Origin: an uncultured beta proteobacterium
GTDB taxonomy: Bacteria; Pseudomonadota; Gammaproteobacteria; Burkholderiales; SHXO01
Direction of reading: 5' to 3'
Assembly (NCBI GenBank): GCA_963827575.1
Contig: CAWHCG010000048.1
Location: forward strand, 124,060-188,059
DNA: 64,000 bases
Below the pieces are notes generated by a model. It did no database searches. It was not told the DNA's origin and saw nothing but the letters and a program-made list of their open reading frames with translations. Below, piece by piece: positions 23,719 through 42,133 of the stretch. Positions within the stretch are counted from its first letter, which is position 1, and each line of letters begins with the position of its first letter. Made by a program: the position numbers and the translations under genes.

Positions 23719-23890
23719 AGCCCTCCCTCTCCCCTCCTCTGCCGAGGAGGGGAGCCCACGAAGTGGGCGGGGTGGTGCTCTCCCCCTCCTGCCCGAGGAG
23801 GGGTGCCCACGAAGCGGGCGGGGTGGTGCTCTCCCCTCCTGCCCGAGGAGGGGTGCCCACGAAGTGGGCGGGGTGGTGGGAGCCCGGTCC
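23719..23890. repeat. Three tandem ~51-bp GC-rich palindromic units (REP-like) in convergent intergenic region
   Basis: ctc(c)cctcctgcccgaggaggggtgcccacgaag(t/c)gggcggggtggtg x3; each unit has cccctcct/aggagggg inverted repeat. Confidence 0.8.
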
Positions 23891-26988: not shown

Positions 26989-27393
26989 TCAGTCGATTCC
27001 CTGCAACCCCAGGCTTGCGGCCTGAGCGCTGCGCTCGGCGTCGCCCGTGCCCAGCGCAAGCGCGGAGCCCGATGGCAGCTGGCGGGCAATAGTCTCGGCG
27101 GCCGCCAGATTCAATGCGCCGAGCACATCGATGAGGCCGGTTTCGGCCAGCTCCGCCGCACGTCGCAGCATTGCGGCATCCGGCGCCACCGCGTGCACAC
27201 CCTGCCAGTCCTGCTCGAAATCGCCCCTGGCTTGCCTGACCACCGTCTCCCGAAGCATGCCGGACGCGACCGCTCGTGCCAGCGCTCCGCGCACTTCCAC
27301 GTAGGTCGCGTCCAGGGCAAAGACGGCTGAGGCCTGCTTCAAGGCACGGCGCAAAGGCCCGGAACCGGGCTCGACGACGTAGAGCTTGATGAA
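26989..27393 (-). CDS. PIN-domain toxin (VapC-like)
   Basis: VILFLDASAFIKLYVVEPGS...; non-ATG start likely; downstream of Phd antitoxin. Confidence 0.65.
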   Translation of the reverse strand, partial: FIKLYVVEPGSGPLRRALKQASAVFALDATYVEVRGALARAVASGMLRETVVRQARGDFEQDWQGVHAVAPDAAMLRRAAELAETGLIDVLGALNLAAAETIARQLPSGSALALGTGDAERSAQAASLGLQGID

Positions 27394-27416
27394 CGCGGAA
27401 GCATCCAGGAACAGGA

Positions 27417-27707
27417 TCACCGCGGCTTGCGGGGGCTGGTCGACAGCAAGTCGCTCACGCGCGCGCCGCCATGCGGCGGACGGGCCGGATTGCGCGATCC
27501 GACCGGCGCGGAGCCGCTGGCCGGCCGAACCCACGACATGGCGGTCAAGCGTTGGAGGGCATCCTGCTCGCTCTCCGGGGCCGAGCTGATCGGAACGAGC
27601 TTTGCGATCGGCCGGTTGTGCAGGGTAACGACGACCTCGCGGCCGCCGGCGGCATGGCGCAAGTACTCGGAAAGCCTGGCTTTGAGGTCACGGATGGATA
27701 CGTGCAT
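27417..27707 (-). CDS. Phd/YefM-family antitoxin
   Basis: MHVSIRDLKARLSEYLRHAAGGREVVVTLHNRPIAKLVPI. Confidence 0.75.
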   Translation of the reverse strand: MHVSIRDLKARLSEYLRHAAGGREVVVTLHNRPIAKLVPISSAPESEQDALQRLTAMSWVRPASGSAPVGSRNPARPPHGGARVSDLLSTSPRKPR

Positions 27708-28084
27708 AGTTCACATTGTAACTACAACTTTTCGGCTGTGACCACAATTTTTCTTGACAGGCCTACGCACGCCTGCCTATGATGCGCGCCGCGATCGAAC
27801 GGATCGCTCGTGTTTCGATTTCAGCAACCAGGTGTCCAGGAAAATGTACTCGCTGCATCCCACCATTCGCGCCCCGCGCCCGCTAGGCCAAGCCATAGCG
27901 GCGGGAACGCGCGCGTTCGGGAAAGGCTCGAGTAGCCAGACCCCATCGCGTTTGCAGCCGACAGCGTTGGCCTGCAATAGCGATCACGCGCGTCCCCAGG
28001 CCGGTTTCGACCGGTCGTGCGGACGACCCGGGCATTCGCGGAGGTTTGTGACCTGAGCGAAGGGTTACATCCAATTTCCCGAAA

Positions 28085-28236: not shown

Positions 28237-28323
28237 GCGCCGATGGCGAAATCGGCAGACGCAGCAGCTCGAGAGGCTGTCGCCCACCAGGGCGTACAGG
28301 TTCAAGTCCTGTTCGGCGCACCA
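28237..28323 (+). tRNA. tRNA-Leu (anticodon GAG), class II
   Basis: Acceptor GCGCCGA/TCGGCGC, A73, Leu-type D-arm TGGCGAAATCGGCAGACGC, anticodon loop TCGAGAG (C at position 33), long variable arm, T-arm ACAGGTTCAAGTCCTGT. Confidence 0.75.
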
Positions 28324-28630
28324 CATTGAATCTGGTTTGCGCCAATGGTCGTGTGATACGGCGCCAGCAGGAGGGGGCGGTGGGGCCCTCTCCGAAGTGG
28401 CGAACTGCGACTGCGACGATCGAACCCAGCGGAGGCTCCGCCGCACTACGGACCCCGTTCGCTTGCCCGCAACCCTGCTGGCGGGTGGGATAGATCGACG
28501 CGAACCACCGGATCGCGCTTGTCGTTGAGCGCGCGCACCCAACGACGCTTGCGGCCCTCGTCCAGGGGTGAGGTCACTTGGCTTTCAATCAAGTCAGAGG
28601 AGTTCGACTCTCCTACGGTTCGCTGGTTGC

Positions 28631-28707
28631 CGGGGAGTGCCCGAGTGGCCCAAGGGACCTGCCTCTGAAGCAGTGATTCGCTGGTTCGAATCCAGCCTCC
28701 CCTACCA
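28631..28707 (+). tRNA. tRNA-Gln-like (anticodon CTG) with C1-U72 mismatch and A73
   Basis: CGGGGAG...CTCCCCT acceptor, Gln-like D-arm CCCGAGTGGCCCAAGGG, anticodon loop CTCTGAA, T-arm GCTGGTTCGAATCCAGC. Confidence 0.6.
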
Positions 28708-28714
28708 GAGCACT

Positions 28715-28806
28715 GGAGAGTTGGTCGAGCGGCTTAAGACCCCCGCCTGCTAAGCGGGAGCCCTCAAACAGAGGGCGCGTGGGTTCGAATCCCACACTCT
28801 CCGCCA
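28715..28806 (+). tRNA. tRNA-Ser (anticodon GCT)
   Basis: GGAGAGT/ACTCTCC acceptor, G73, anticodon arm CCCGC CTGCTAA GCGGG, long variable arm, T-arm GTGGGTTCGAATCCCAC, encoded CCA. Confidence 0.9.
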
Positions 28807-29177
28807 TATCGGGCAGCGTGATGTCCGTAACGACAACGCCCGCCAGGGCGCCAAAGCGGGAAGTCCTGCACTCCCGCGCCGGCAACGGTCGATTCACGCA
28901 AGCCTCACCCATCCCGCGAGGGAGCGATCGCCGAAAAGAGCGGCGGTCGTAGGGACGCAGCACGCTGCGGACGAGCAACGCACACTCGCTCACCGATACC
29001 GTCGGAATCGGGTGCGCGCAGACGACGGGTGCCGTCCTGCTTGCCGTACCGAGACCTCAGTCCTCAGGGTAAAAGGTAGCTTCCTGGTCCGAGCGTTGCG
29101 CGAGGGCTCGGGGGCAGATCGACAGGTGCGCGCAGCCCGGCTGCCGGCATCTCGAAGATCGGTCAAGTCGTCGCAGG

Positions 29178-29249
29178 TCGGGAATAGCTCAAGGATGAGA
29201 GCGGCAGGCTGCGGCCTGTAGGCTGTGGGATCGACGCCCACTTCCCGGT
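29178..29249 (+). tRNA. tRNA-like, Arg (GCG) anticodon in 6-nt loop, non-canonical T-loop ATCGACG
   Basis: TCGGGAA/TTCCCGG acceptor, D-arm GCTCAAGGATGAGAGC, anticodon arm GCAGG CTGCGG CCTGT; loop would be 7 nt if cc is an undercounted ccc. Confidence 0.45.
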
Positions 29250-29254
29250 CATTC

Positions 29255-29330
29255 GCCGCTGTAGCTGATCAAGTGACAGCGCCTGCCTGAAGCGCAGGAG
29301 AGCCTGGAGCGTTACCAGGCGGCGGCACCA
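29255..29330 (+). tRNA. tRNA-Phe-like (anticodon GAA) with covariant T-loop AGCGTTA and GG-less D-loop
   Basis: GCCGCTG/CGGCGGC acceptor, A73, CCA encoded; anticodon arm CCTGC CTGAAGC GCAGG; T-stem CCTGG/CCAGG. Confidence 0.55.
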
Positions 29331-29335
29331 AGCAC

Positions 29336-29434
29336 GGCTCCGTAGCTTAATGGCAAAGCCGGCGGCTTATACCCGCCCACAGCACTCGCCTGATAAGCGA
29401 GCGATGCAGGTTCGAGCCCTGCCAGGACGCACCA
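29336..29434 (+). tRNA. Chimeric/degenerate tRNA-like element with two anticodon-type hairpins (TAT and GAT) and unpaired acceptor
   Basis: GGCTCCG TA GCTTAATGGCAAAGC then GGCGG CTTATAC CCGCC then CTCGC CTGATAA GCGAG then GCAGGTTCGAGCCCTGC; 3' CAGGACG does not pair with 5' end. Confidence 0.4.
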
Positions 29435-29628
29435 CCGAGACGCCGTCGCACGGTCCAGGTGTGGAGGTGCACAAGGACATCAGAAGCTGGGATGACCTGT
29501 TCTGGTTCCGATTCAAGCACTGCTGCCTGGCCTCGGGCCGATACGACGGTAGCGAGCGGGACGACTTCTTTCAGAGAGTGATCCCGCGCGAGCACATCGT
29601 ACTTCTCCGCTTGCTACACAGTGTCTTG

Positions 29629-29675
29629 CCCCCTCCCCAGCCCTCCCCGCGTCCTGCGGACGCAAGGGAGGGGGT
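29629..29675. repeat. GGGAGGGG-type palindromic (REP-like) element inside tRNA array
   Basis: ccccctcccc agccctcccc gcgtcc tgc ggacgc aagggaggggg. Confidence 0.55.
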
Positions 29676-29715
29676 GCGCGCTGCGTCAAGCGGTCGAGGT
29701 TCACGGAATTCCTCC

Positions 29716-29787
29716 GGGCTCCTGGCCGAGCGGCTAGGCAGCGGACTCTTAATCCGCGCGAGGCAGGTTCGACTCCTGCGGGGCCCA
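29716..29787 (+). tRNA. tRNA-Lys (anticodon CTT)
   Basis: GGGCTCC/GGGGCCC acceptor (one G-U), A73, anticodon arm GCGGA CTCTTAA TCCGC, T-arm GCAGGTTCGACTCCTGC. Confidence 0.75.
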
Positions 29788-29830
29788 CAAGTGTTTGGCC
29801 TCACGTTTTCTGCGAGGGCTCGAATCCAAT

Positions 29831-29907
29831 GGTGGCTGTAGCTCAACGGACAGAGCACCGGGCCGTGAACCCGGGAGATGCCGGTTCGAATCCGGCTGGT
29901 CACCCCA
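29831..29907 (+). tRNA. tRNA-His (anticodon GTG) with G-1 and three G-U pairs in acceptor
   Basis: G-1 GTGGCTG...TGGTCAC C CCA; anticodon arm CCGGG CCGTGAA CCCGG; T-arm GCCGGTTCGAATCCGGC. Confidence 0.75.
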
Positions 29908-29913
29908 AACATC

Positions 29914-29988
29914 CTCCCCGTAGATCAGCGGAAGATCGCGGCGCTACGAACGCCGAGGCCGGGAGTTCGAATCTCTCCGGGGAGGCCA
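29914..29988 (+). tRNA. tRNA-Arg (anticodon ACG)
   Basis: CTCCCCG/CGGGGAG perfect acceptor, G73, CCA encoded; anticodon arm CGGCG CTACGAA CGCCG. Confidence 0.9.
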
Positions 29989-30025
29989 ACCTTCTCTCCA
30001 CGAGCAGGACTCCTTCACGTTCTAC

Positions 30026-30113
30026 TGCCAGGTGGCCGAGAGGCGAAGGCACCGGACTGCAAATCCGGCTGGCGCAAGCCACATCACCGGTTCGACTCCG
30101 GTTCTGGCATCCA
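30026..30113 (+). tRNA. Class-II-shaped (long variable arm, Ser-type D-arm) tRNA with Cys anticodon GCA and U73
   Basis: TGCCAGG/TCTGGCA acceptor, U73, CCA encoded; D-arm GCC GAGAGGCGAA GGC; anticodon arm CCGGA CTGCAAA TCCGG; 17-nt variable arm with 4-bp stem (TGGC GCAA GCCA); T-arm ACCGGTTCGACTCCGGT. Confidence 0.65.
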
Positions 30114-30154
30114 TCAACCCCGGGCTTGCGGCCCATTTGCAGAAGGAGTCGACC

Positions 30155-30718
30155 ATGCAGAGCCCGATCCTGGCATTGGACATCGCCGGCACTCCGCGCA
30201 AGTGGGTCACAGCGCAGACCGCCGTCACCTACTACGCCCGCGGTGTCGTCGGCTATGAGTTCGGCGACAGCACGGCGGAGTTCCGCGGCGGCTGGCAGCG
30301 CTGCGGCAAGCGCTCCCGCATCCGCGTGAGCAGCATCATCGCGGTCCTGGGGCCGGAGTTCGTCGCCGGCGGCTTTGACCGAGCGCCGGTGTTGAGCAAC
30401 GAAAAGCTGTTCGCGCGCGACCGCCGGGTGTGCGCGTACTGCGGCATGCAGTTCCGCGATCGCGACCTGTCGCGCGATCACATCGTCCCGGTTGCCCGCG
30501 GCGGACTCGACACCTGGATGAACCTGGTCACCGCCTGTCACGCGTGCAACGCCCGCAAGGGAAGCCGCCGGCCGGAGGAAGCCGGTATGCGGCTGCAATA
30601 CCTCCCCTACGTGCCATCGCGTTGGGAGGACTTCATCCTGGTCAATCGTCATATCCTGGCGGACCAGATGGAGTACTTGCTGGCCAAGGTGCCCGCGAAC
30701 AGTCGTCTGCGCAATTGA
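30155..30718 (+). CDS. HNH endonuclease embedded in tRNA array
   Basis: RBS gaaggag; ...DHIVPVARGGLDTWMNLVTACHACNARKG... HNH motif; intact 187 aa. Confidence 0.8.
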   Translation: MQSPILALDIAGTPRKWVTAQTAVTYYARGVVGYEFGDSTAEFRGGWQRCGKRSRIRVSSIIAVLGPEFVAGGFDRAPVLSNEKLFARDRRVCAYCGMQFRDRDLSRDHIVPVARGGLDTWMNLVTACHACNARKGSRRPEEAGMRLQYLPYVPSRWEDFILVNRHILADQMEYLLAKVPANSRLRN

Positions 30719-30865
30719 GAGCGCCGGGCTCGGAAGCCCGGTGCTCGTTTCAGAATCTTCCGTCCAGCGGAACTGCAGCGGCGCAGGCTCGAGAGCCCTG
30801 CCCGGTGCGCCGGCCCTTCAGAATCGGGCTGGCGTATGCCGCAGCCCGTGAAGCGGTGGATACCA

Positions 30866-30939
30866 GGTGACCTAGCTCAGCGGTAGAGCGCGGATCTTCC
30901 GATCCGAGGTCGTGGGTTCGATTCCCATGTTCACCTCCA
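30866..30939 (+). tRNA. tRNA-Gly-like (anticodon TCC) with 6-nt anticodon loop and one acceptor mismatch
   Basis: GGTGACC/GTTCACC acceptor, U73, CCA encoded; anticodon region CGGAT CTTCCG ATCCG (7-nt loop CTTCCGA if a homopolymer a is undercounted). Confidence 0.55.
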
Positions 30940-31009
30940 CTCCTTAGCTCAGTGGTAGAGCGATCGGCTGATAACCGATTGGCCGCGGGTTCGACTCCCG
31001 CAGGAAGCC
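30940..31009 (+). tRNA. tRNA-Ile-like (anticodon GAT) with degenerate acceptor; 5' end overlaps CCA of preceding tRNA
   Basis: D-arm GCTCAGTGGTAGAGC, anticodon arm ATCGG CTGATAA CCGAT, T-arm GCGGGTTCGACTCCCGC; only 4 of 7 acceptor pairs. Confidence 0.4.
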
Positions 31010-31430
31010 CTTTCCAAGGGTTTGTTTGCAGTACCCAGGCCGGCCTCACGCGCACTGCGCAGCAGTCTTGCGGTGCGCACCGCCGTGCGAGCAGAGCAGC
31101 ATCAGCGCACCGGCGCGAACGAGCACCAGCCAAACGGTCCAGTCTGCGATGGCGGCCAGCAGCATCGGCCGCGGGAGCAGGCAGACTGCGCGGCGCGGCT
31201 CGGCGGGGCCCATCCTCGATGGGCCTCTCGTCCCGCCTGTGACCGGATGCCTGTCCGTCGTGACGCCGGGAGGCCGGCCTTTCATTACTCGGGTTTGGGG
31301 CGAGCCCGCTTTGACTTCGCCCCGGGTGGTGCGGGACCCCCTGCTACGTCCCGCGAGGGTCGGCGCTTGCCGATTCGACCCCGCCGCGTTTCGGTCGGTG
31401 AACGGTAACGACGCGGCAAGGAGAAAGAAG

Positions 31431-32570
31431 ATGTTTCGCAAGTTTCTAATCAAGAAGGACGAGCGCGCCGTGTTGCTGTACCGCGGCGACTTTGCCGGCA
31501 TCCTCGGGCCGGGTGAGCACCGTTACTTCGACCCGCTGCAGCGCTTCGCGGTCGAGGTGCTCCCGCTCGAGGCGTCCCGGTTCGAGCACCGCTTCGCCGA
31601 CTACATTGTGAAGGCGGAGCCGCAACTCGCGGCCGAGCACTTCCACGTCATCGAGCTGGGGCCGACCGAACTGGCGCTGCGCTATGAGAACGGCGTCCTG
31701 GTGGAGCTGATTGCACCCAACGCGCGCCGGCTCTACTTCAAGGGCTACACCAACATCCTGCACGAGGTTGTCGATGTCGCCGAGCGCTTCGAAGTCGCGC
31801 CTGCACTCGCGTCCGTGATCGCGTACGGCACCCGTACCGGCCGCAAGGTCGAAGGAGCCGAGGCCGGTGTTTTCCCCGTCCCGGTGCCGGAGCATTTCGT
31901 CGGCGTGCTGTTCGTCGACGGCAAGCTCGACCGGCTGCTGGATCCGGGTCTGCACGCCTTCTACCGGTTCAACCGCGATCTGCGTGTGGAGTTCGTGGAC
32001 CTGCGTCTGCAGGCGATCGAGGTCTCCGGTCAGGAGATCCTGACCAGGGATAAGGTCGCACTGCGGGTCAACCTCACCGCCGGCTACCGCATCACCGACG
32101 TGAAGCTCGCCTTCGCCAAGCAGGCGAAGCCGGTGGACTACCTCTACCGGGAGCTGCAGTTCGGCCTGCGTGCGGCGGTCGGCACCCGAACCCTCGACGA
32201 GCTGCTCGAAAACAAGGGCGTGATCGACGAGGTGGTCTCGGCCCACGTCCGCAAGGCAGCAGACGGCTTCGGCCTGATGGTCGAATCGGTGGGTGTGAAG
32301 GACATCATCCTGCCGGGCGACATGAAGGCGATCCTCACCAAGGTGGTGGAGGCGGAGAAGTCCGCCCAGGCGAACGTGATCCGTCGTCGCGAGGAAACCG
32401 CGGCGACCCGCTCGCTGCTCAACACCGCCAAGGTGATGGAAGACAACCCGGTCGCCTTGCGCCTGAAGGAGCTGGAGACTCTGGAGAAGGTCACCGAGAA
32501 GATCGACAAGATCTCCGTGTTCGGCGGCCTCGACGGGGTGCTCAAGGATCTGGTAAAGATCCGTGTGTAA
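31431..32570 (+). CDS. SPFH/band-7 (slipin-like) domain protein
   Basis: Intact; RBS aggagaaag; coiled C-terminal region AEKSAQANVIRRREETAATRSLLNTAKVMEDNPVALRLKELETLEKV. Confidence 0.75.
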   Translation: MFRKFLIKKDERAVLLYRGDFAGILGPGEHRYFDPLQRFAVEVLPLEASRFEHRFADYIVKAEPQLAAEHFHVIELGPTELALRYENGVLVELIAPNARRLYFKGYTNILHEVVDVAERFEVAPALASVIAYGTRTGRKVEGAEAGVFPVPVPEHFVGVLFVDGKLDRLLDPGLHAFYRFNRDLRVEFVDLRLQAIEVSGQEILTRDKVALRVNLTAGYRITDVKLAFAKQAKPVDYLYRELQFGLRAAVGTRTLDELLENKGVIDEVVSAHVRKAADGFGLMVESVGVKDIILPGDMKAILTKVVEAEKSAQANVIRRREETAATRSLLNTAKVMEDNPVALRLKELETLEKVTEKIDKISVFGGLDGVLKDLVKIRV

Positions 32571-32791
32571 GCTGCCGGCCTCTTACCCAAGCCAGCCAGG
32601 AATCCTGGCTGGCTTTTTTTGCTCCTTCGCCCGATCCGCGGCAGCGGAATCGCCGCGACGTATCGAGGGCCCTCCCTCGTCCCCGGTCACGCATGACCGC
32701 CACAGCGGTTTTCGTGCCGGGGTGCACCGGCATTGAGCGCATGCGCGAAATCCTGCAATCTAGCCATCTATCTAGCCAGCTCGGAGGTCCC

Positions 32792-33072
32792 ATGCGTGAA
32801 GTCCCGATCACCGAGGCCAAGAACGCGCTGACCTCGCTCGTGCACCAGGCCGAAGCCGGCAAGCCGATCAGGTTGACGCGCCGCGGCAAGCCGGTGGCTG
32901 TGCTGCTGTCGGAGGAAGCCTATCGGCGTCTGCAGTCCGGCGCGGCAGAGCAGCGCGACCTGTGGGAATTCGTCGAGCGCTGGCGCGCCGCGTTGCCCGC
33001 AGACTGGAAGGCATCAGCCCGGAAGAAACGCGGGGCTGGCGCGACCGCGACGTGGGTCGCCCTTCTCCGTGG
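32792..33072 (+). CDS. Phd/YefM-family antitoxin (3' end approximate; frame reads through into toxin)
   Basis: MREVPITEAKNALTSLVHQAEAGKPIRLTRRGKPVAVLLSEEAYRRLQ. Confidence 0.7.
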
Positions 33073-33497
33073 GAAAGCTGACTTTTCTCCTGGATGCGAA
33101 TGTCCTTTCGGAGCTGACCAGGCCTCGAGCGGATGCGCGTGTGCTGGCCCGCTTCAAACGGTACCGCAGGCAAGTATGCACGGCGGCAGTCGTATACCAC
33201 GAGCTGAGATCCGGTGTCACTACGATGCCGGACGGCGCGCGCAAGACCTCCCTCGCATCGTTTCTCGACGGGCTGCTTGCGTCGGGTCTGGAAATTCTCG
33301 CGTATGACCTGCGTGCGGCTGCTTGGCACGCGGATGAGCGTGCCCGCCTGCAGAAAGTCGGCCAACCTCGTCCCTTTGTCGATGGCCAGATCGCGGCCAT
33401 CGCTGCCGTAAACGACCTCGTGCTCGTTACCAGGAATGTATCGGACTTCGCCCTGTTCCAGGGTCTACGGGTCAAAGACTGGACGAACCCGCGCTGA
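33069..33497 (+). CDS. vapC: PIN-domain toxin VapC
   Basis: LTFLLDANVLSELTRP...VTRNVSDFALFQGLRVKDW. Confidence 0.8.
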   Translation: MGKLTFLLDANVLSELTRPRADARVLARFKRYRRQVCTAAVVYHELRSGVTTMPDGARKTSLASFLDGLLASGLEILAYDLRAAAWHADERARLQKVGQPRPFVDGQIAAIAAVNDLVLVTRNVSDFALFQGLRVKDWTNPR

Positions 33498-36248: not shown

Positions 36249-36576
36249 GCCTGTCGGTCAACGAGATCGCCAGGCGCACGAGCCTGGCGCGGCAACACGA
36301 TCAAGAAGTGGTTGAGGGCGCCTCGGGGGTCCGCTGGATGGCCTGGTTGGGCCTCGCTCTCTCCATCACGGTTGAATCTCCTTCATCTCATATGTTCGGG
36401 GCACAGCGACCGAGCCCGTGGCCCACTCTGGGCTGACTCCCCAGCGCCCCCCTGCCCGAGTTCGTCCTCGACCAGCGCCTAGGCTGGCAGACAGCTAGAG
36501 TGCCGTGAGTCCGTATATGGCCAGGTTCGCCTGTTTTGGCTTAAACTCCGGCTGCAAACCTGGGACGGGGGGTGTG

Positions 36577-37338
36577 ATGGATCCGAAGTCCTTGCCCATC
36601 GTGCGGCTCGCCGCGTTGGGCTTTACGCTGCTCGCAAAGGGCGCGCTCGGCGCCATTCTCTACGACGCATCGCTGGGGACGCTGCCTGCGGCGCAGGGAT
36701 GGAGTTTCGCTGCATTGTTCGGATCCCCTAGCCAGAGCGTCGGAGGCGGCGTGCTCAACCTGGACACGACCTCAGACTCCGCCATACGCGCCGGGTATTT
36801 GCGTTTGGATCAGGTGGTCGACAGCGCGGCCGGCGTACGCCTTTCCTTTTCGGCGCAGCTGCTGACGGAAGCGCACGCGAGCAACGACCGGGCCGGGTTT
36901 TCCGTCATTCTGCTGGACAACACCAACCGCGGGATCGAGCTGGGATTCTGGACCAGCCCGGGCCGAATCTGGGCTCAGAGCGCGCCGGCCTTCACGCAAG
37001 CCGAGGGCGCCGCCGTCTCGACTGGTGCCGCAATCATCGACTACACCCTGGAGCTGCAAGGCGGCTCGTACGCCCTCAGTGCCGATGGGTCGCCGGTTCT
37101 GTCCGGGCCGATGCGCGATTACTCCTCGTTCGGCTTGCCATACAGTATCAAGAACTTCATCTTTTTCGGTGACGACACTATGTCCGCGCGGGCGAGCGTC
37201 GATCTTGCCGCCATCAGTATCAGCGCGGTACCCGAGCCGGGCGCAGCGGCAGTGATGCTGGCCGGGCTCGCGCTGCTCGGCGCAGCGCTTTGCAAGGTGC
37301 CTTTGCGTCGCATCGCTCGCTCCGTAACGGGGCACTGA
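36577..37338 (+). CDS. PEP-CTERM sorting-domain secreted protein
   Basis: N-terminal signal peptide; C-terminus VPEPGAAAVMLAGLALLGAALCKVPLRR (PEP motif, TM helix, basic tail). Confidence 0.75.
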   Translation: MDPKSLPIVRLAALGFTLLAKGALGAILYDASLGTLPAAQGWSFAALFGSPSQSVGGGVLNLDTTSDSAIRAGYLRLDQVVDSAAGVRLSFSAQLLTEAHASNDRAGFSVILLDNTNRGIELGFWTSPGRIWAQSAPAFTQAEGAAVSTGAAIIDYTLELQGGSYALSADGSPVLSGPMRDYSSFGLPYSIKNFIFFGDDTMSARASVDLAAISISAVPEPGAAAVMLAGLALLGAALCKVPLRRIARSVTGH

Positions 37339-37880: not shown

Positions 37881-38826
37881 ATTATGCAAAGGGCCCAGTT
37901 ATGAATAGTGGGTCTTCTGGAAAACGTGTGGGTGAATTCTAGGATCAATCTGGCTGTAAGCCGCGCCAGTACTGGGTTTCAGGGGTTGGGACAGGGCTTG
38001 GAATCTGGCATGATTTCTCCATGTCTACTCCGAAGAAGTCCAAGCGTCTGCTTGACGCATATCGGTTCCCTGGCTTTCGGCCCTTGCCGGGCTTGTGGGG
38101 GGTGTTCGGTGACTCGCATGCGCGCGTGGTGCGGCTCGTGCGGCGCTCAAAAAAACGGTCTAGCGCGAGGGCTGGGCGCGACGCTTCTTCGACTGGTGTG
38201 CCGCCCTCAAATGGCAGCGGCTCAAGCCCTACGAGAACTTCGCCGAGATGATCGATCGTCATTGGGACGGAATCGCTGCCTACTGCAAGCCAGAGAACAA
38301 GGTCTCGCTGGGATTCGTGGAGGGGCTGAACAACAAAAATTCGCGTCATCCAGCGGCGCGCGTACGGGCTGCGCGACGAGGAGTATCTGCGGCTAAAGAT
38401 CCTCACTTGCATGCTCCCGAAGCTCTAAAAACCCTCAAAACTATCCACTCGATTTCCTGAAGACCCTGAATAGTTTGAAGGGCCCGAAGGCCGGTAACCC
38501 GCGCCAATCCTCGTGATCTGACGCTCGACAGCGCGGCGCACTGGACATAATTCCGGCGCTCCGGTAGCACTGACGGTGACACTCCTGGAGGCCGTCATGG
38601 TCAGGATTCTTGCTACACACCGAGGCGGACCTCGCGATGAAGGAGCGGGCCCTGGCCAAGTTGCAGGATCCGGGCACCCGACGCTACTGCGGCTCCGTCT
38701 CGCTGATCGAGTTCCTGAAGAGCCTGTAATTATGTGAAGGGCGCGGACGCGCGAAACCGTCGTTGTACGAGGCAACTCCCGCGCCCGCCGCCGGCCAACT
38801 GTTCATAACTGGGCCCTTCACATAAT
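37881..38826. mobile_element. Degenerate IS remnant bounded by ~28-bp imperfect inverted repeats, containing ISL3-type transposase C-terminal fragment and a ~100-bp MITE-like unit (38729-38826)
   Basis: IR-L attatgcaaagggcccagttatgaatag (37881-37908) vs IR-R reverse complement attatgtgaagggcccagttatgaacag (38799-38826), 25 of 28 matches; third copy of the IR at 38729-38744; ORF 38248..38460 MIDRHWDGIAAYCKPENKVSLGFVEGLNNK... matches ISL3 transposase C-terminus. Confidence 0.5.
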
Positions 38827-39202
38827 GGCCGACTGCTGCCGATCAGGATCCCGCCAGTAGACATTTCCATTCAACGTCCGCTTTCGAGCACAGCGACGGG
38901 CTGGACACGACCCTGAGCAGCCTCTCGCCACCGAGCAAAGCAGACGCTCGCCGAAGCCCTGACGCCGGCCAGCGGCTCGGTCGACAAGGTCACATCTGTG
39001 ACCGACGCGAATTACCCTTGGCTAGACTGATGAGCGCTCAAGCCGTCATGAAGCTATGCAAGTTCAGGCGCCATCGACCGCGTTGGCGCATATCCTCGCC
39101 GTCGACGACGATCCCATCAGTCGGCAGACGACATGCACTACATGAACAGAGCTCTCAAGAACGAGGCAGAAACTTCCGACGCATTGAGTTTGGAGTAACG
39201 GA

Positions 39203-39900
39203 ATGAGGCTCGAGCCAGTTCTCCGAGGACTGCTCTTCGCTATCGCATTTCTATCCCTGGTCGCGGATGCACTTGCCGCTGACGTGAGGACGGCGCGGCA
39301 GGCCGTCTACAAGATAGGAGCGAAGCTGCATGGAAGAGGCGCCGCTCTTGGTTCTGCCGTGTTGCTTGCGCCAGGTAGGCTGGTCACCAACTGTCACACG
39401 ACGAGGGACGCCGATCGGATTCTCATCTTGCACCGGGAGGGCGAAATTCCTGCACGAATGGCGCACATGAACCCGCGTCAAGACCTGTGCCTGCTTCTCG
39501 CGCCCGAATTGCAGGGCCCCGTTCCCGAGCGACGGCCGTCGTCTCAACTCCAGATCGGCGAGCAAGTCATCGCCATCGGCTACGCGGAGGGTTATCAGCC
39601 GTACATCAGCGAGGGCCGAATCACCGCGCTGTATCAAATGGACGGCGCTTATGTGATTCGGACAACTGCCGGATTTCCTAGAGGTGCAAGTGGCGGAGGC
39701 CTCTTCGACGAACAAGGTCGGTTGGTCGGCGTGCTCACGTTCCGGGGGACTCTGGGCGATGACCTCAACTATGCCGTACCCACTGAGTGGGTTGAACCAT
39801 TGGTGGAGGCCGACGCGATCCCGCATGAACCTAAGGCGGTCTCAGCGGCCTTCTGGCAGGATAACGCCCCTGCACAGCCGATCTTCTTGCAAGCGGCATG
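39203..39900 (+). CDS. Secreted trypsin-like (S1) serine protease; 3' boundary uncertain (ORF continues to 40249 through probable frameshifts)
   Basis: Signal peptide MRLEPVLRGLLFAIAFLSLVADALA; LVTNCHT (His), GASGGGLF (Ser) motifs. Confidence 0.6.
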
Positions 39901-40065
39901 GCTAGAGAAGGCGGAAGCTTGGGCCGAGCTGCACGGTGATAGCCCTCGATTGGACCCTAGGAGAGCCGGACGATCCAGAGGCATGGCTGGCGCTCGGGCG
40001 GGCGAAGCTCGAGCTGGGAGCCCCCGCGGAAGCTGTAGCTCGCCAAGAAAGCACCCCGGCATGCA

Positions 40066-40249
40066 TCGCACCGAAACCGTCGATTACGCGATAGTGCTGG
40101 AGGGCGAGATCTACGCGGTCATGGACCAAGACGAGACATTGATGCGGGCAGGCGATGTCTTGATTCAACGCGGGACCAACCACGCGTGGGCAAACCGATC
40201 GGACAAGACCGCGCGGATCGCATTCGTACTGATCGACGGGAAGCGTTAG
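40066..40249 (+). CDS. Cupin-like C-terminal segment (fragment or frameshift fusion)
   Basis: MHRTETVDYAIVLEGEIYAVMDQDETLMRAGDVLIQRGTNHAWANRSDKTARIAFVLIDGK. Confidence 0.3.
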
Positions 40250-40427
40250 GTCAAGCCACGAGAATGCCGGAACCCTGTATGCCGGCATACGCAGTATGAC
40301 GCCGAACATCCAGTTGCACCGAAGCGTCAACAGCCACCTTCGGCGCCTGTCGCCGCCCGGTGAACTGGGTCGGTTAGGCCCCGGCATGCCGGGTTTTTGC
40401 ATCATCCACACCGACGAGGAACCGACC

Positions 40428-40949
40428 ATGAATCAGGCGAAACCCATCAAAGCCTTGACATCAGCTCTATTGCTGATCACCGCAGTTTCGTTGAGCATCG
40501 TCGCCGATGCTGCCGAGAAAAGAGAACAAACCTGCGTAAAAACAAACATCAGAACTCTATACAAGACAGTTTTGCCGATAGGTGATGTCCCCAACCACGA
40601 ACTCGTCCAAGAAGCGAATATCTCCGACCTCAAAGTGTCAAATCCAGATTTCAAGGTCACAGAGGAGTGGGTTTACGTCCAGTCAGACCTTAGAGACGGT
40701 AGCGGAACGCAAACCGGGTACTTCTACGATACGCACGAAGACGGGAGTCAAGACTATGGCGCTTTCAAAGGCACCGTCAAGACGACTGTCAAGGGAGACG
40801 GTTCCTGGGAATCTAGCTGGGAGGGGACGTATCAATATGTGGGTGGGAGCGGCAAGTTCAAGAACCTTAAAGGAGCGGGCAAGTACAAAGGAAAGGCATC
40901 ATCCACCGAGCCCGCTCGCGAGGAATGTCAGGAAACTGTCGAGTACTGA
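40428..40949 (+). CDS. Secreted protein of unknown function, noticeably AT-richer than surroundings
   Basis: MNQAKPIKALTSALLLITAVSLSIVADA signal peptide; Lys/Thr/Gly-rich mature part; local base composition visibly lower GC. Confidence 0.6.
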   Translation: MNQAKPIKALTSALLLITAVSLSIVADAAEKREQTCVKTNIRTLYKTVLPIGDVPNHELVQEANISDLKVSNPDFKVTEEWVYVQSDLRDGSGTQTGYFYDTHEDGSQDYGAFKGTVKTTVKGDGSWESSWEGTYQYVGGSGKFKNLKGAGKYKGKASSTEPAREECQETVEY

Positions 40950-41078
40950 ACTCATCTTAAGACGCTGGATACGCCGACACCGCGTGGCCTAACCCACCGA
41001 GCCCGCTCGCGAGGAATGTCAGGAAACTGTCGAGTACTGAACTCATCTTAAGACGCTGGATACGCCGACACCGCGTGG
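40903..41078. repeat. Tandem direct duplication (~84-bp unit, 91-bp period, 2 copies) spanning the stop codon of the 40428..40949 gene
   Basis: ccaccgagcccgctcgcgaggaatgtcaggaaactgtcgagtactgaactcatcttaagacgctggatacgccgacaccgcgtggc twice, separated by ctaaccc. Confidence 0.85.
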
Positions 41079-41677
41079 CTAACCCTATGGTTCTACTCAC
41101 TTCGCCGCTACAGGAGGGTGTAGATCGCGTGCACGACGTTCCACCGCCTGATCGTACTCCGGAGGCCAAGCTGCTGCATGAGTCGGGTCGTGATGCAGGG
41201 AGCCAACGTAGACTCTTCAGGTTCCGCGCGAGGCCGGCGGCGCGAGCGACTGCTGTACTGCTTGTGGGTACGAAAGCCGGGCAGGCTATCGCGTCTTGCT
41301 TGCCACGGCCCGCCTGAGAGACGCGCACAGCGACGCTTCCTGCCCGCTCCGGGGTCGCATCCACCGGCAAGCCGGCGGCGCGTCGTGGCGCGGAAGGGGG
41401 GCCCCCAAACTTTGTTTGCGGATCTGACCGCGAACACGCGCACAGGCCAGCGGCGACGCGCCTGCGGCCAGCTACACGGTCGCATCCCCGGAGGGGCCCT
41501 TGCTCCGCGTTTCGCTGGCCCCTGCTCCGCCCTGCGCGGCGCCGGCCACACCGGGCATGCCCGTCTTGCCCATAGAATGATCTATTGGCTGCGCACGTCG
41601 AGCCCGATCTGTCTCGCCCAGCCCTCCGCTACGATCTCGCGTCCTGATGAAATATCCGGGCTAGCGCGGGCTAGGGG

Positions 41678-41932
41678 CTAGCGCCGGCCCACCTTCGGCC
41701 GTGCTTCGTTGACGCGCAGGGGACGGCCGTGGAAGTCCTTTCCATTCAAACCCGCGATGGCGTCGAGCGAGTGTTGCTTGCCGGGCATCTCGACGAAACC
41801 GAACCCCTTGGACGCGCCGCTGAAGAGCTCGCGCATCACCTGCGCCGATTTCACCTGGCCGAAGGCCTTGAAAGCGTCCGCCAGCTCGGTCTCGGTCACC
41901 TCCGGTGCGAGATTTCCAACGTAGATGTTCAT
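41678..41932 (-). CDS. RRM-type RNA-binding protein
   Basis: MNIYVGNL (RNP2) ... KGFGFVEM (RNP1). Confidence 0.85.
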   Translation of the reverse strand: MNIYVGNLAPEVTETELADAFKAFGQVKSAQVMRELFSGASKGFGFVEMPGKQHSLDAIAGLNGKDFHGRPLRVNEARPKVGRR

Positions 41933-42133
41933 GTCCGGCTCCTGTCTGCAGGTTGCACCCAAAAAACAAAGCCACAGAGGTCACAGAGCACCCAGAGGAG
42001 GAACATGCTCCACGCGGTTCGCGCCTCACCGAACGGGTGACAGGACGTACACGCATGACTCATCGAACTTCTCTGTGCTCTCTGTGCGCTGTGTGGCTGA
42101 TGTGCGGTTTACAAGCTGTATGTTCGTCGCGGT

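Follow-up and report, generated by a model that had tools for sequence, protein, structure and literature searches.

In a 64,000-nucleotide stretch of DNA from an uncultured beta proteobacterium (contig CAWHCG010000048.1, positions 124,060 to 188,059; the whole stretch is referred to as the window), a tRNA gene with the anticodon GCA, termed tRNA-Cys(GCA), was found to combine the identity elements of a cysteine tRNA with the long variable arm of a class II tRNA. It probably encodes a cysteine-inserting tRNA of cysteine identity on a class II scaffold, which would be charged by cysteinyl-tRNA synthetase (CysRS) and would read the codons UGC and UGU. Sequence comparison places it in a coherent family that is carried mainly by phage and mobile-element tRNA arrays. 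To our knowledge, textbooks name only the tRNAs for Leu, Ser, Tyr, and selenocysteine (Sec) as long-variable-arm tRNAs of bacteria and treat the arm as a hallmark of these identities.

ARAGORN called a tRNA-Cys(gca) of 88 nt on the forward strand, with a 7/5 acceptor/T structure, and its drawing agreed on every point with the anatomy given in a preliminary description of this DNA (all coordinates are compiled in the table below). The acceptor stem consists of the pairs U1-A72, G2-C71, C3-G70, C4-G69, A5-U68, G6-C67, and G7·U66. In the 5′ to 3′ direction, the variable region comprises an unpaired C, a 4-bp stem (UGGC/GCCA) around a GCAA loop, and four unpaired nucleotides (CAUC). Direct reading of the sequence revealed all of the consensus nucleotides U8, A14, G18G19, A21, U33, A37A38, G53, T54-T55-C56, and A58. 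The tRNA model of Rfam (RF00005) matched the gene with 53.1 bits (E = 1e-9), on par with its neighbors in the array, and clan competition assigned the match to tRNA and not to tRNA-Sec. Single-sequence minimum free energy folding gave z = −1.3 and was uninformative, as is usual for tRNAs. The earlier statement that no single indel explains the long-armed tRNA-Cys was judged correct.

A homolog search, proposed in the preliminary description, recovered the same 88-nt gene in six contigs and related tRNAs in phages, metagenome-assembled genomes (MAGs), and metagenomes. The six contigs (L170-L175), which originate from four independent JGI metagenomes, were traced via members of the same 90% HNH protein cluster, and all of them share the order Lys(CUU)-His-Arg(ACG)-Cys(GCA, 88 nt)-HNH. 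The tRNA-Cys orthologs differ at three to five of the 88 positions (94-97% identity), whereas the short spacers around the gene are 70-85% identical. Expressed as mismatches, 22/121 positions differed in the spacers versus 3/88 in tRNA-Cys (Fisher p = 0.001); with the six well-formed array tRNAs pooled, the difference to the spacers reached p = 6e-8. The variable positions 20, 26, and 59 are unpaired, and the substitutions at the two sites in stems keep the pairing (G7·U66 to G-C in the acceptor stem, U-A to U·G in the variable arm). Conservation above the level of the spacers indicates purifying selection and rules out an artifact. A sequencing or assembly error or a chance tRNA-like fold has next to no probability; it is refuted by the recurrence of the gene with three to five substitutions in independent metagenomes and by the Rfam E-value.

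The determinants of bacterial cysteine identity comprise U73, G2-C71, C3-G70, a tertiary element, and G34-C35-A36 (PMC9976931, table of Giegé and Eriani). The window tRNA carries every one of them except for the Escherichia coli-specific G15:G48 pair, in place of which an ordinary G15 and C48 are found. GCA and U73 had been singled out beforehand as CysRS identity elements; both are present and both appear in the bacterial Cys list of the cited source, and U73 is kept in 6/6 orthologs. The tRNA departs from the class I architecture of bacterial tRNA-Cys, where the variable loop has 4-5 nt, by its arm of 17 nt.

The family was delimited by a pattern search in IMG/VR for a GCA anticodon loop, a long variable region, and a T-arm, which matched at least 120 loci. 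The family figures given here rest on the matches listed from IMG/VR plus further finds, and all totals are lower bounds. ARAGORN identified a tRNA-Cys(GCA) of 83-93 nt in 70 of 120 IMG/VR loci among the matches listed; in 53 of these 70, the gene lies within a cluster of at least five tRNAs (median 11), and in 12 a class I tRNA-Cys was also seen in the fetched stretch. At least about 65 distinct tRNAs of the same design were found outside the window, on IMG/VR contigs, in MAGs, and in the phages CcrColossus and Xoo-sp13. Apart from IMG/VR, members were seen on the MAG contigs L122, L129, L130, and L131, which carry tRNA arrays, and in arrays from soil metagenomes (L145/L153 and L151). Aligning 36 members yielded a cloverleaf with compensatory changes at 18/20 pairs.

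The coupling of anticodon and discriminator is nearly invariant, with GCA accompanied by U73 in 38/40 parsed nonredundant class II-shaped Cys members. The co-sampled class II tRNAs carried A73 in the case of Tyr (16/16) and Leu (24/25) and G73 in the case of Ser (24/27). Together with the conservation of the gene in relatives, this family-wide coupling argues for a selected cysteine identity rather than an accident. The acceptor stems of the family are not Ser-like: G2-C71 is present in 6/40 Cys members versus 24/27 Ser tRNAs, and the commonest third pair is C-G in Cys and A-U in Ser.

As MAFFT placed the variable arms out of register and RNAalifold called no arm stem, the arms were examined separately by a hairpin search that is independent of ARAGORN, with shuffled sequences for comparison. 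Stems of at least 3 bp were found in 50/50 Cys variable regions versus 63% of shuffles, and stems of at least 4 bp in 52% versus a shuffle mean of 21% (maximum 38%). The 50 arms contain 44 different stem sequences, which points to compensatory variation in the variable arm. The commonest geometry (31/50) is a stem of 3-4 bp, a 4-nt loop, and three unpaired 3′ nucleotides. This geometry was also observed in 17/30 Tyr arms; Leu arms have two unpaired nucleotides, and Ser arms (n = 51) mostly have 5-6 bp and one or two unpaired 3′ nucleotides, with three or more in 0/51. The window tRNA exhibits all features of the family, i.e., the 7/5 structure, a 3-bp D-stem, GCA, U73, an arm stem of 3-4 bp, a tetraloop-type loop, and three to four unpaired 3′ nucleotides. 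With the anticodon masked and the discriminator removed, it scored 41.7 bits with a leave-one-out hidden Markov model (HMM) of the family versus 22.2 (Ser), 13.2 (Tyr), and 9.6 (Leu) bits, and its nearest neighbors are the tRNA-Cys of L153 and Xoo-sp13.

For the array to supply a cysteine tRNA, it would have to be transcribed and processed, and the host CysRS would then read U73, G2-C71, C3-G70, and the GCA anticodon. The charged tRNA would decode UGC and UGU as cysteine. CysRS would tolerate the extra arm because this class I enzyme approaches the acceptor stem from its minor-groove side, a binding mode that leaves the variable region facing the solvent. The minor-groove side of the acceptor stem is the binding face of class I synthetases (PMC7373986), and long-armed selC* tRNACys species with U73 and GCA or UCA are regarded as CysRS substrates that function in translation, which has been demonstrated in part (PMC5389517).

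The scaffold probably derives from a Ser- or Tyr-type phage or array tRNA by a switch of anticodon and discriminator. Bacterial tRNA-Tyr, a class II tRNA with GUA and A73, resembles it in the arm (stem of 3-4 bp, tetraloop, three unpaired 3′ nucleotides); moreover, the D-arm word GCCGAGAGGCGAAGGC also occurs in phage Tyr tRNAs, and GUA is converted to GCA by one transition. The window tRNA differs from tRNA-Tyr by C35 and U73 in place of U35 and A73, the main determinants of tyrosyl-tRNA synthetase (TyrRS), and for its body the Ser model gives a higher score than the Tyr model. A tRNA-Tyr origin, first suggested by the arm geometry, was not upheld as such, since the masked-anticodon HMMs place the body nearer to Ser; with the body nearest to Ser and the arm geometry Tyr-like, either type may be the ancestor. 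A73 is needed by TyrRS and leucyl-tRNA synthetase, the former needing U35 as well, so both enzymes are excluded for the window tRNA.

Several points weigh against a cysteine-inserting tRNA. The first pair is U1-A72 in the window and likewise in 6/6 orthologs, while G1-C72 is found in 32/40 family members. CP1 of CysRS reads the first acceptor pair, and selC* tRNAs with A1:U72 needed a dedicated CysRS variant (Mukai et al., PMC5389517); an ordinary host CysRS could therefore charge the window tRNA inefficiently. Three serine determinants (G2-C71, C11-G24, and G30-C40) are retained. The search patterns fixed CTGCAAA and GGTTCGANTCC, which inflates the similarity within the family and forces A37 and A38; with anticodon loop, T-arm, and discriminator deleted, the nearest neighbor of a class II Cys tRNA was a class II Cys tRNA in 44/52 cases, a test that removes most of this pattern bias but not all. 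Some tRNA-like genes of the same array are plainly abnormal, having 6-nt anticodon loops or a broken acceptor stem, so not all array members need be working tRNAs. Finally, both charging and expression of the tRNA-Cys are predicted from its sequence.

The retained serine determinants bear on the alternative that seryl-tRNA synthetase (SerRS) charges the tRNA with serine, alone or beside CysRS, and that UGC and UGU are partly read as serine. Dual identity or miscoding of this kind had been proposed in the preliminary description, where the long arm was taken as a SerRS recognition element. The arm is indeed long, and with anticodon and discriminator left out of account as above, the Ser HMM was the best of the Ser, Tyr, and Leu models for 64/74 Cys members, the window tRNA included with the score given above. 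The remainder of the proposal fits less well, as the Ser-type arm (long stem, one or two unpaired nucleotides ahead of the T-stem) is not what the window tRNA has: its 4-bp stem with four unpaired 3′ nucleotides has no counterpart among the 51 co-sampled Ser tRNAs, which weakens the inference of SerRS recognition. In E. coli, a Tyr- or Leu-type orientation of the arm works against SerRS. From the list of bacterial Ser determinants (G73, C72, G2-C71, R4-Y69, C11-G24, a large variable region, and G30-C40; PMC9976931), G73, C72, and R4-Y69 are absent from the window tRNA, which has U73, A72, and C4-G69. U73 itself has been treated as compatible with SerRS for allo-tRNAs (Mukai et al., PMC5389517) and occurs in 3/27 sampled phage Ser tRNAs. 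However, serylation does not explain the near-universal coupling of U73 and GCA, and the acceptor stems of the family are not Ser-like. The window tRNA has no serine anticodon (NGA or GCU), and an ordinary tRNA-Ser(GCU) with G73 is separately encoded at 28715-28806. Taken together, mischarging with serine appears quite improbable.

A role outside translation is also unlikely, though it accounts for some features of the locus. The gene would then be a conserved tRNA-like decoy, substrate, or regulator for tRNA-directed nucleases, e.g., the neighboring PIN/VapC-type toxins, or a slowly decaying passenger of the array. PIN and Phd/YefM genes flank the array, and related arrays have a weak PIN hit with a Phd gene (L159) or a Phd antitoxin gene beside an unannotated ORF (L172) as neighbors; the array members at 29178-29250, 30866-30939, and 29336-29430 are unable to decode normally and are yet 92-97% conserved; and a report on mycobacterial arrays considers tRNA array units putative anti-defense elements of untested function (PMC12803027). 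The tRNA-Cys itself argues otherwise, having a flawless cloverleaf, all nucleotides for tertiary interactions, a 7-nt anticodon loop with U33 and A37A38, and an encoded CCA. A mere decoy would not need the full set of Cys identity elements throughout the family. Furthermore, the class II gene was the only tRNA-Cys seen in the fetched stretch of 58/70 viral loci among the matches listed, indicating that this form fills the Cys slot.

The window tRNA was compared with other systems. The selC* tRNACys (Mukai et al. 2017, PMC5389517), the nearest case known, is also long-armed and carries U73 with GCA or UCA, but it mimics tRNA-Sec, with branches of the 8/4 type (8/4, 9/4, or 8/5), a long D-stem with a tetraloop, and a longer anticodon stem, and it is linked to selB*/cysS* and the Sec machinery. 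In place of these features, the window tRNA has a plain 7/5 structure, a 3-bp D-stem with a 10-nt loop of the Ser/Tyr type, and a 5-bp anticodon stem, and its gene lies in a tRNA array that contains an HNH gene. Genuine selC*-like genes, which look quite different, were found separately (L125, L133, L136, L138, L139). The allo-tRNAs described in the same study (PMC5389517) are class II-like, carry anticodons other than those of Ser, Leu, or Tyr, occur in bacteria and phages, and are often located near toxin-antitoxin genes; they differ from the window tRNA by 8/4 or 9/3 acceptor/T structures, an inferred Ser identity, and many anticodons, whereas the 7/5 window tRNA has an anticodon coupled to the Cys discriminator. 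As the 8/4 or 9/3, Sec-like architecture is absent, the window tRNA is neither a selC* tRNACys nor an allo-tRNA.

In the report on mycobacterial arrays (PMC12803027), the tRNA array unit is characterized by dense extra tRNA genes with one embedded HNH gene, and the dense tRNA cluster of the window with its embedded HNH gene fits this description. The tRNAs of the mycobacterial arrays have D-arms, anticodon arms, and variable arms unlike those of chromosomal tRNAs, and the arrays are related to mobile elements or phages. They belong to another phylum and are larger, with 26-27 tRNAs for 19-20 amino acids compared with about 12 members in the window array. The latter has a conserved chromosomal neighborhood in which no integrase was seen, and a class II tRNA-Cys is not mentioned for the mycobacterial arrays in the passages of that report that were consulted.

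The closest counterparts in cultured viruses are found in two jumbo phages of other proteobacterial classes. In Caulobacter phage CcrColossus (NC_019406, 132216-132302), an 87-nt gene is annotated simply as tRNA-Cys, and Xanthomonas phage Xoo-sp13 (MN047793, 48473-48560) contains an unannotated homolog, 99% of which aligns with the window tRNA at 77% identity. Both share the design of 87-89 nt, 7/5 structure, GCA, U73, CCA, a short variable stem, and a GAAA-type loop, and neither GenBank entry comments on the class II shape. The 7/5 class II tRNA-Cys is a noncanonical tRNA with a variable arm that is already deposited as tRNA-Cys in at least one GenBank phage record, and annotation by anticodon only would hide a structurally distinct tRNA class in such records. 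Literature searches retrieved no paper on a phage tRNA-Cys of the 7/5 class II form, which is weak evidence given that most subscription-journal papers were outside their coverage.

Class II-shaped tRNAs with other anticodons were observed in the same phage arrays, namely Asn(GUU), Lys(UUU), Ile(GAU), Arg(UCG), Met, and Thr (e.g., L168 3293-3379 in Xoo-sp13, and L151 5056-5140, 7402-7484, 8188-8271, and 11035-11118); for Asn, at least 13 distinct examples were present in the IMG/VR loci. Reassignment of the long-arm scaffold thus extends beyond Cys. A scan of genome contigs, among which the window gene itself was absent, yielded mostly selC*-like genes and truncated Tyr-like half copies. The latter are 3′ halves of a tRNA-Tyr-like gene with the anticodon GCA, not GUA, in Actinobacteria (Nocardioides, Mycobacterium, Micromonospora, Pseudonocardia; L121 3413-3454, L128 705-747, L132 5494-5534, L135 6911-6951, L137 4237-4277). 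They are probably attachment-site remnants of integrated elements; in L137, an intact tRNA-Tyr lies 3.8 kb from the half copy.

A conserved and widespread long-arm family with a complete set of Cys identity elements would show that recognition by CysRS is largely independent of tRNA class, and that phage and array tRNAs can change their amino acid identity via a switch of anticodon and discriminator. If the tRNA were serylated instead, it would represent a natural device for Cys-to-Ser mistranslation. A further and doubtful proposal is that the family constitutes a mobile-element- and phage-specific tRNA-Cys isoacceptor, which would add a class II tRNA family to those of Leu, Ser, Tyr, and Sec in bacteria and their viruses; that it is retained because its remodeled body satisfies CysRS and escapes host factors directed at ordinary tRNA-Cys, the PIN/VapC-type nucleases beside the arrays being candidates; and that the class II-shaped Asn, Lys, Ile, and Arg tRNAs are part of the same strategy. 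The family offers a concrete test case for the proposed anti-defense role of tRNA arrays and would gain in interest if the scaffold proved adaptive in phage and mobile-element tRNA arrays.

Table. Features of the tRNA-Cys(GCA) gene, the surrounding tRNA array, and adjacent genes (window coordinates)
Feature	Position	Strand	Evidence or details
tRNA array	28237..31010	+	ARAGORN and Rfam
Class II-shaped tRNA-Cys(GCA)	30026..30113	+	ARAGORN; Rfam 53.1 bits; orthologs L170-L175; family membership
tRNA-Cys acceptor stem	30026-30032 / 30103-30109		7 bp
tRNA-Cys D-arm	30035-30050		3-bp D-stem, 10-nt loop with A14, G15, G18G19
tRNA-Cys anticodon arm	30052-30068		5-bp stem, loop CUGCAAA; anticodon GCA at 30059-30061
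tRNA-Cys variable arm	30069-30085		17 nt
tRNA-Cys T-arm	30086-30102		5-bp T-stem, loop UUCGACU
tRNA-Cys discriminator U73 and CCA	30110 (T, U73); 30111-30113 (CCA)		CCA encoded
HNH endonuclease gene inside the array	30155..30718	+	Pfam HNH_5 4.6e-16, HNH 4.1e-13
Sigma-70-like promoter match	27754..27783	+	TTGACA-18-TATGAT, 11/12; about 450 bp 5′ of the first tRNA; consensus match only
SPFH/Band 7 protein gene	31026..32570	+	Directly 3′ of the array; Pfam Band_7 2.9e-29
Open reading frame (ORF) with weak PIN match	26989..27534	-	Upstream of the array; Pfam PIN E = 1.1e-4, 23.2 bits, below the 23.6 cut-off
ORF (204 aa) with Phd/YefM antitoxin domain	32693..33307	+	Domain at aa 34-84; Pfam PhdYeFM_antitox 7.4e-15
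PIN-domain (VapC-like) toxin ORF	33069..33497	+	Pfam PIN 5.3e-8

The array spans 2.8 kb and contains all 11 ARAGORN tRNA genes of the window, all on the forward strand. Its order is Leu(GAG), Gln(CUG), Ser(GCU), a tRNA-like gene with a 6-nt loop, Phe(GAA), Lys(CUU), His(GUG), Arg(ACG), Cys(GCA), the HNH gene, a Gly-like gene with a 6-nt loop, and Ile(GAU). Rfam gave two extra tRNA matches in the array, one of them below the gathering score, including the odd tRNA-like gene at 29336-29430. The discriminators of the well-formed members suit their anticodons (Leu A, Ser G, Phe A, Lys A, His C, Arg G, Cys U), and tRNA-His has a G ahead of position 1 in addition to C73; the array therefore keeps the identity rules intact. 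The HNH gene starts 41 nt 3′ of tRNA-Cys and is preceded by the ribosome-binding site GAAGGAG. Homologs of the HNH protein are common in Burkholderiales, some within other tRNA arrays (L159, L162, L166, L170-L175) and others in chromosomal settings without tRNAs, and the pair of HNH and Band_7 genes was also found in L159 and L170. Three promoter-type sites were found versus 0.5 expected in shuffles, and the sigma-70-like match upstream of the first tRNA is a possible promoter of the array.

Two tRNA genes of the array (29178-29250 and 30866-30939, both +) have 6-nt anticodon loops, denoted '???' by ARAGORN, and are 93-97% conserved in close relatives; the second is otherwise tRNA-Gly(UCC)-like, with U73 and CCA. 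The tRNA-like gene at 29336-29430 (+) was matched by Rfam with 36 bits and missed by ARAGORN in the window, and its orthologs, which are called as 98-nt tRNAs with the 4-nt anticodon 'atac', are 92% conserved. In this gene, two anticodon-arm-like hairpins (GGCGG-CUUAUAC-CCGCC and CUCGC-CUGAUAA-GCGAG) follow one another, and the acceptor stem is poorly paired. Nonstandard anticodon loops were also observed in L159 (4431-4508 and 5989-6069) and L162 (4030-4105), several directly after an HNH gene. The tRNA-Phe(GAA) at 29255-29330 (+) is devoid of G18G19 in the D-loop and of the TTCGA consensus in the T-loop (AGCGTTA instead) and is 95-96% conserved in orthologs; the usual contact at the elbow has apparently been replaced or lost. 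The class I tRNAs Lys(CUU) at 29716-29788 and Gln(CUG) at 28631-28707 combine D-arms of the Ser/Tyr type (e.g., UGGCCGAGCGGCUAGGCA) with 5-nt variable loops, which suggests that array tRNAs were remodeled, either from ancestors of class II-like form or through recombination among tRNA genes.

The window is part of a bacterial chromosome and not of a phage genome. Its Pfam-assigned genes include GroES/GroEL, an adenylate-cyclase/AAA/TPR regulator, a subtilase, CoA-transferases, an EAL protein, and a DEAD-box helicase, and its GroEL is 85-93% identical to proteins from MAGs of uncultured Burkholderiales/Betaproteobacteria; an exact look-up of this GroEL gave no record, and that of the HNH protein gave one 2.7-kb contig. 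BLAST of the array region against GenBank phages gave no match in near mode and generic tRNA matches in distant mode, and nothing relevant was obtained against plasmids; in view of the missing near phage match, the window is not a known phage. Among the window ORFs tested, none was recognized as an integrase or phage structural gene; housekeeping genes adjoin the array, and synteny at this locus extends to L170. This contig runs on into the chromosomal genes of the window (Band_7, CoA-transferases, RRM protein, DEAD helicase), with about 5 kb more in the window between the CoA-transferases and the RRM gene, and the synteny argues that the array is a stable part of the chromosome in this lineage. 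A 19-nt repeat (27004-27022 and 30115-30133) was considered as an insertion boundary and dropped as probably due to chance.

The Phd-domain ORF and the PIN ORF downstream of the array overlap by about 240 nt in different frames, so one of them may be misdelimited or disrupted, and the start or end of the Phd ORF is uncertain. A weak-PIN ORF and a Phd/YefM ORF are located next to the related array in L159 (2054-2805). In L172 (1439-2169), a Phd/YefM ORF and an adjoining 143-aa ORF without Pfam match occupy the place equivalent to that of the upstream PIN ORF of the window. In the related array L162 (2015-3834), the HNH homolog immediately follows a gene for the RNA ligase RtcB, which fits a theme of tRNA repair or anti-nuclease function for such arrays.

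At 38000-42000, the GC content of the window drops to about 60% compared with about 66% elsewhere, and this stretch, for which the syntenic contig L170 has no counterpart, may be an insertion. It contains a trypsin-like peptidase/cupin gene and an unannotated ORF and lies just 3′ of a PEP-CTERM protein gene (36505-37338). At 23732-23878, in the interval separating the genes for the cyclase-type regulator and the subtilase, a 46-nt GC-rich unit with internal hairpins (CCCCTCCT...AGGAGGGG) is present in three tandem copies about 50 nt apart.

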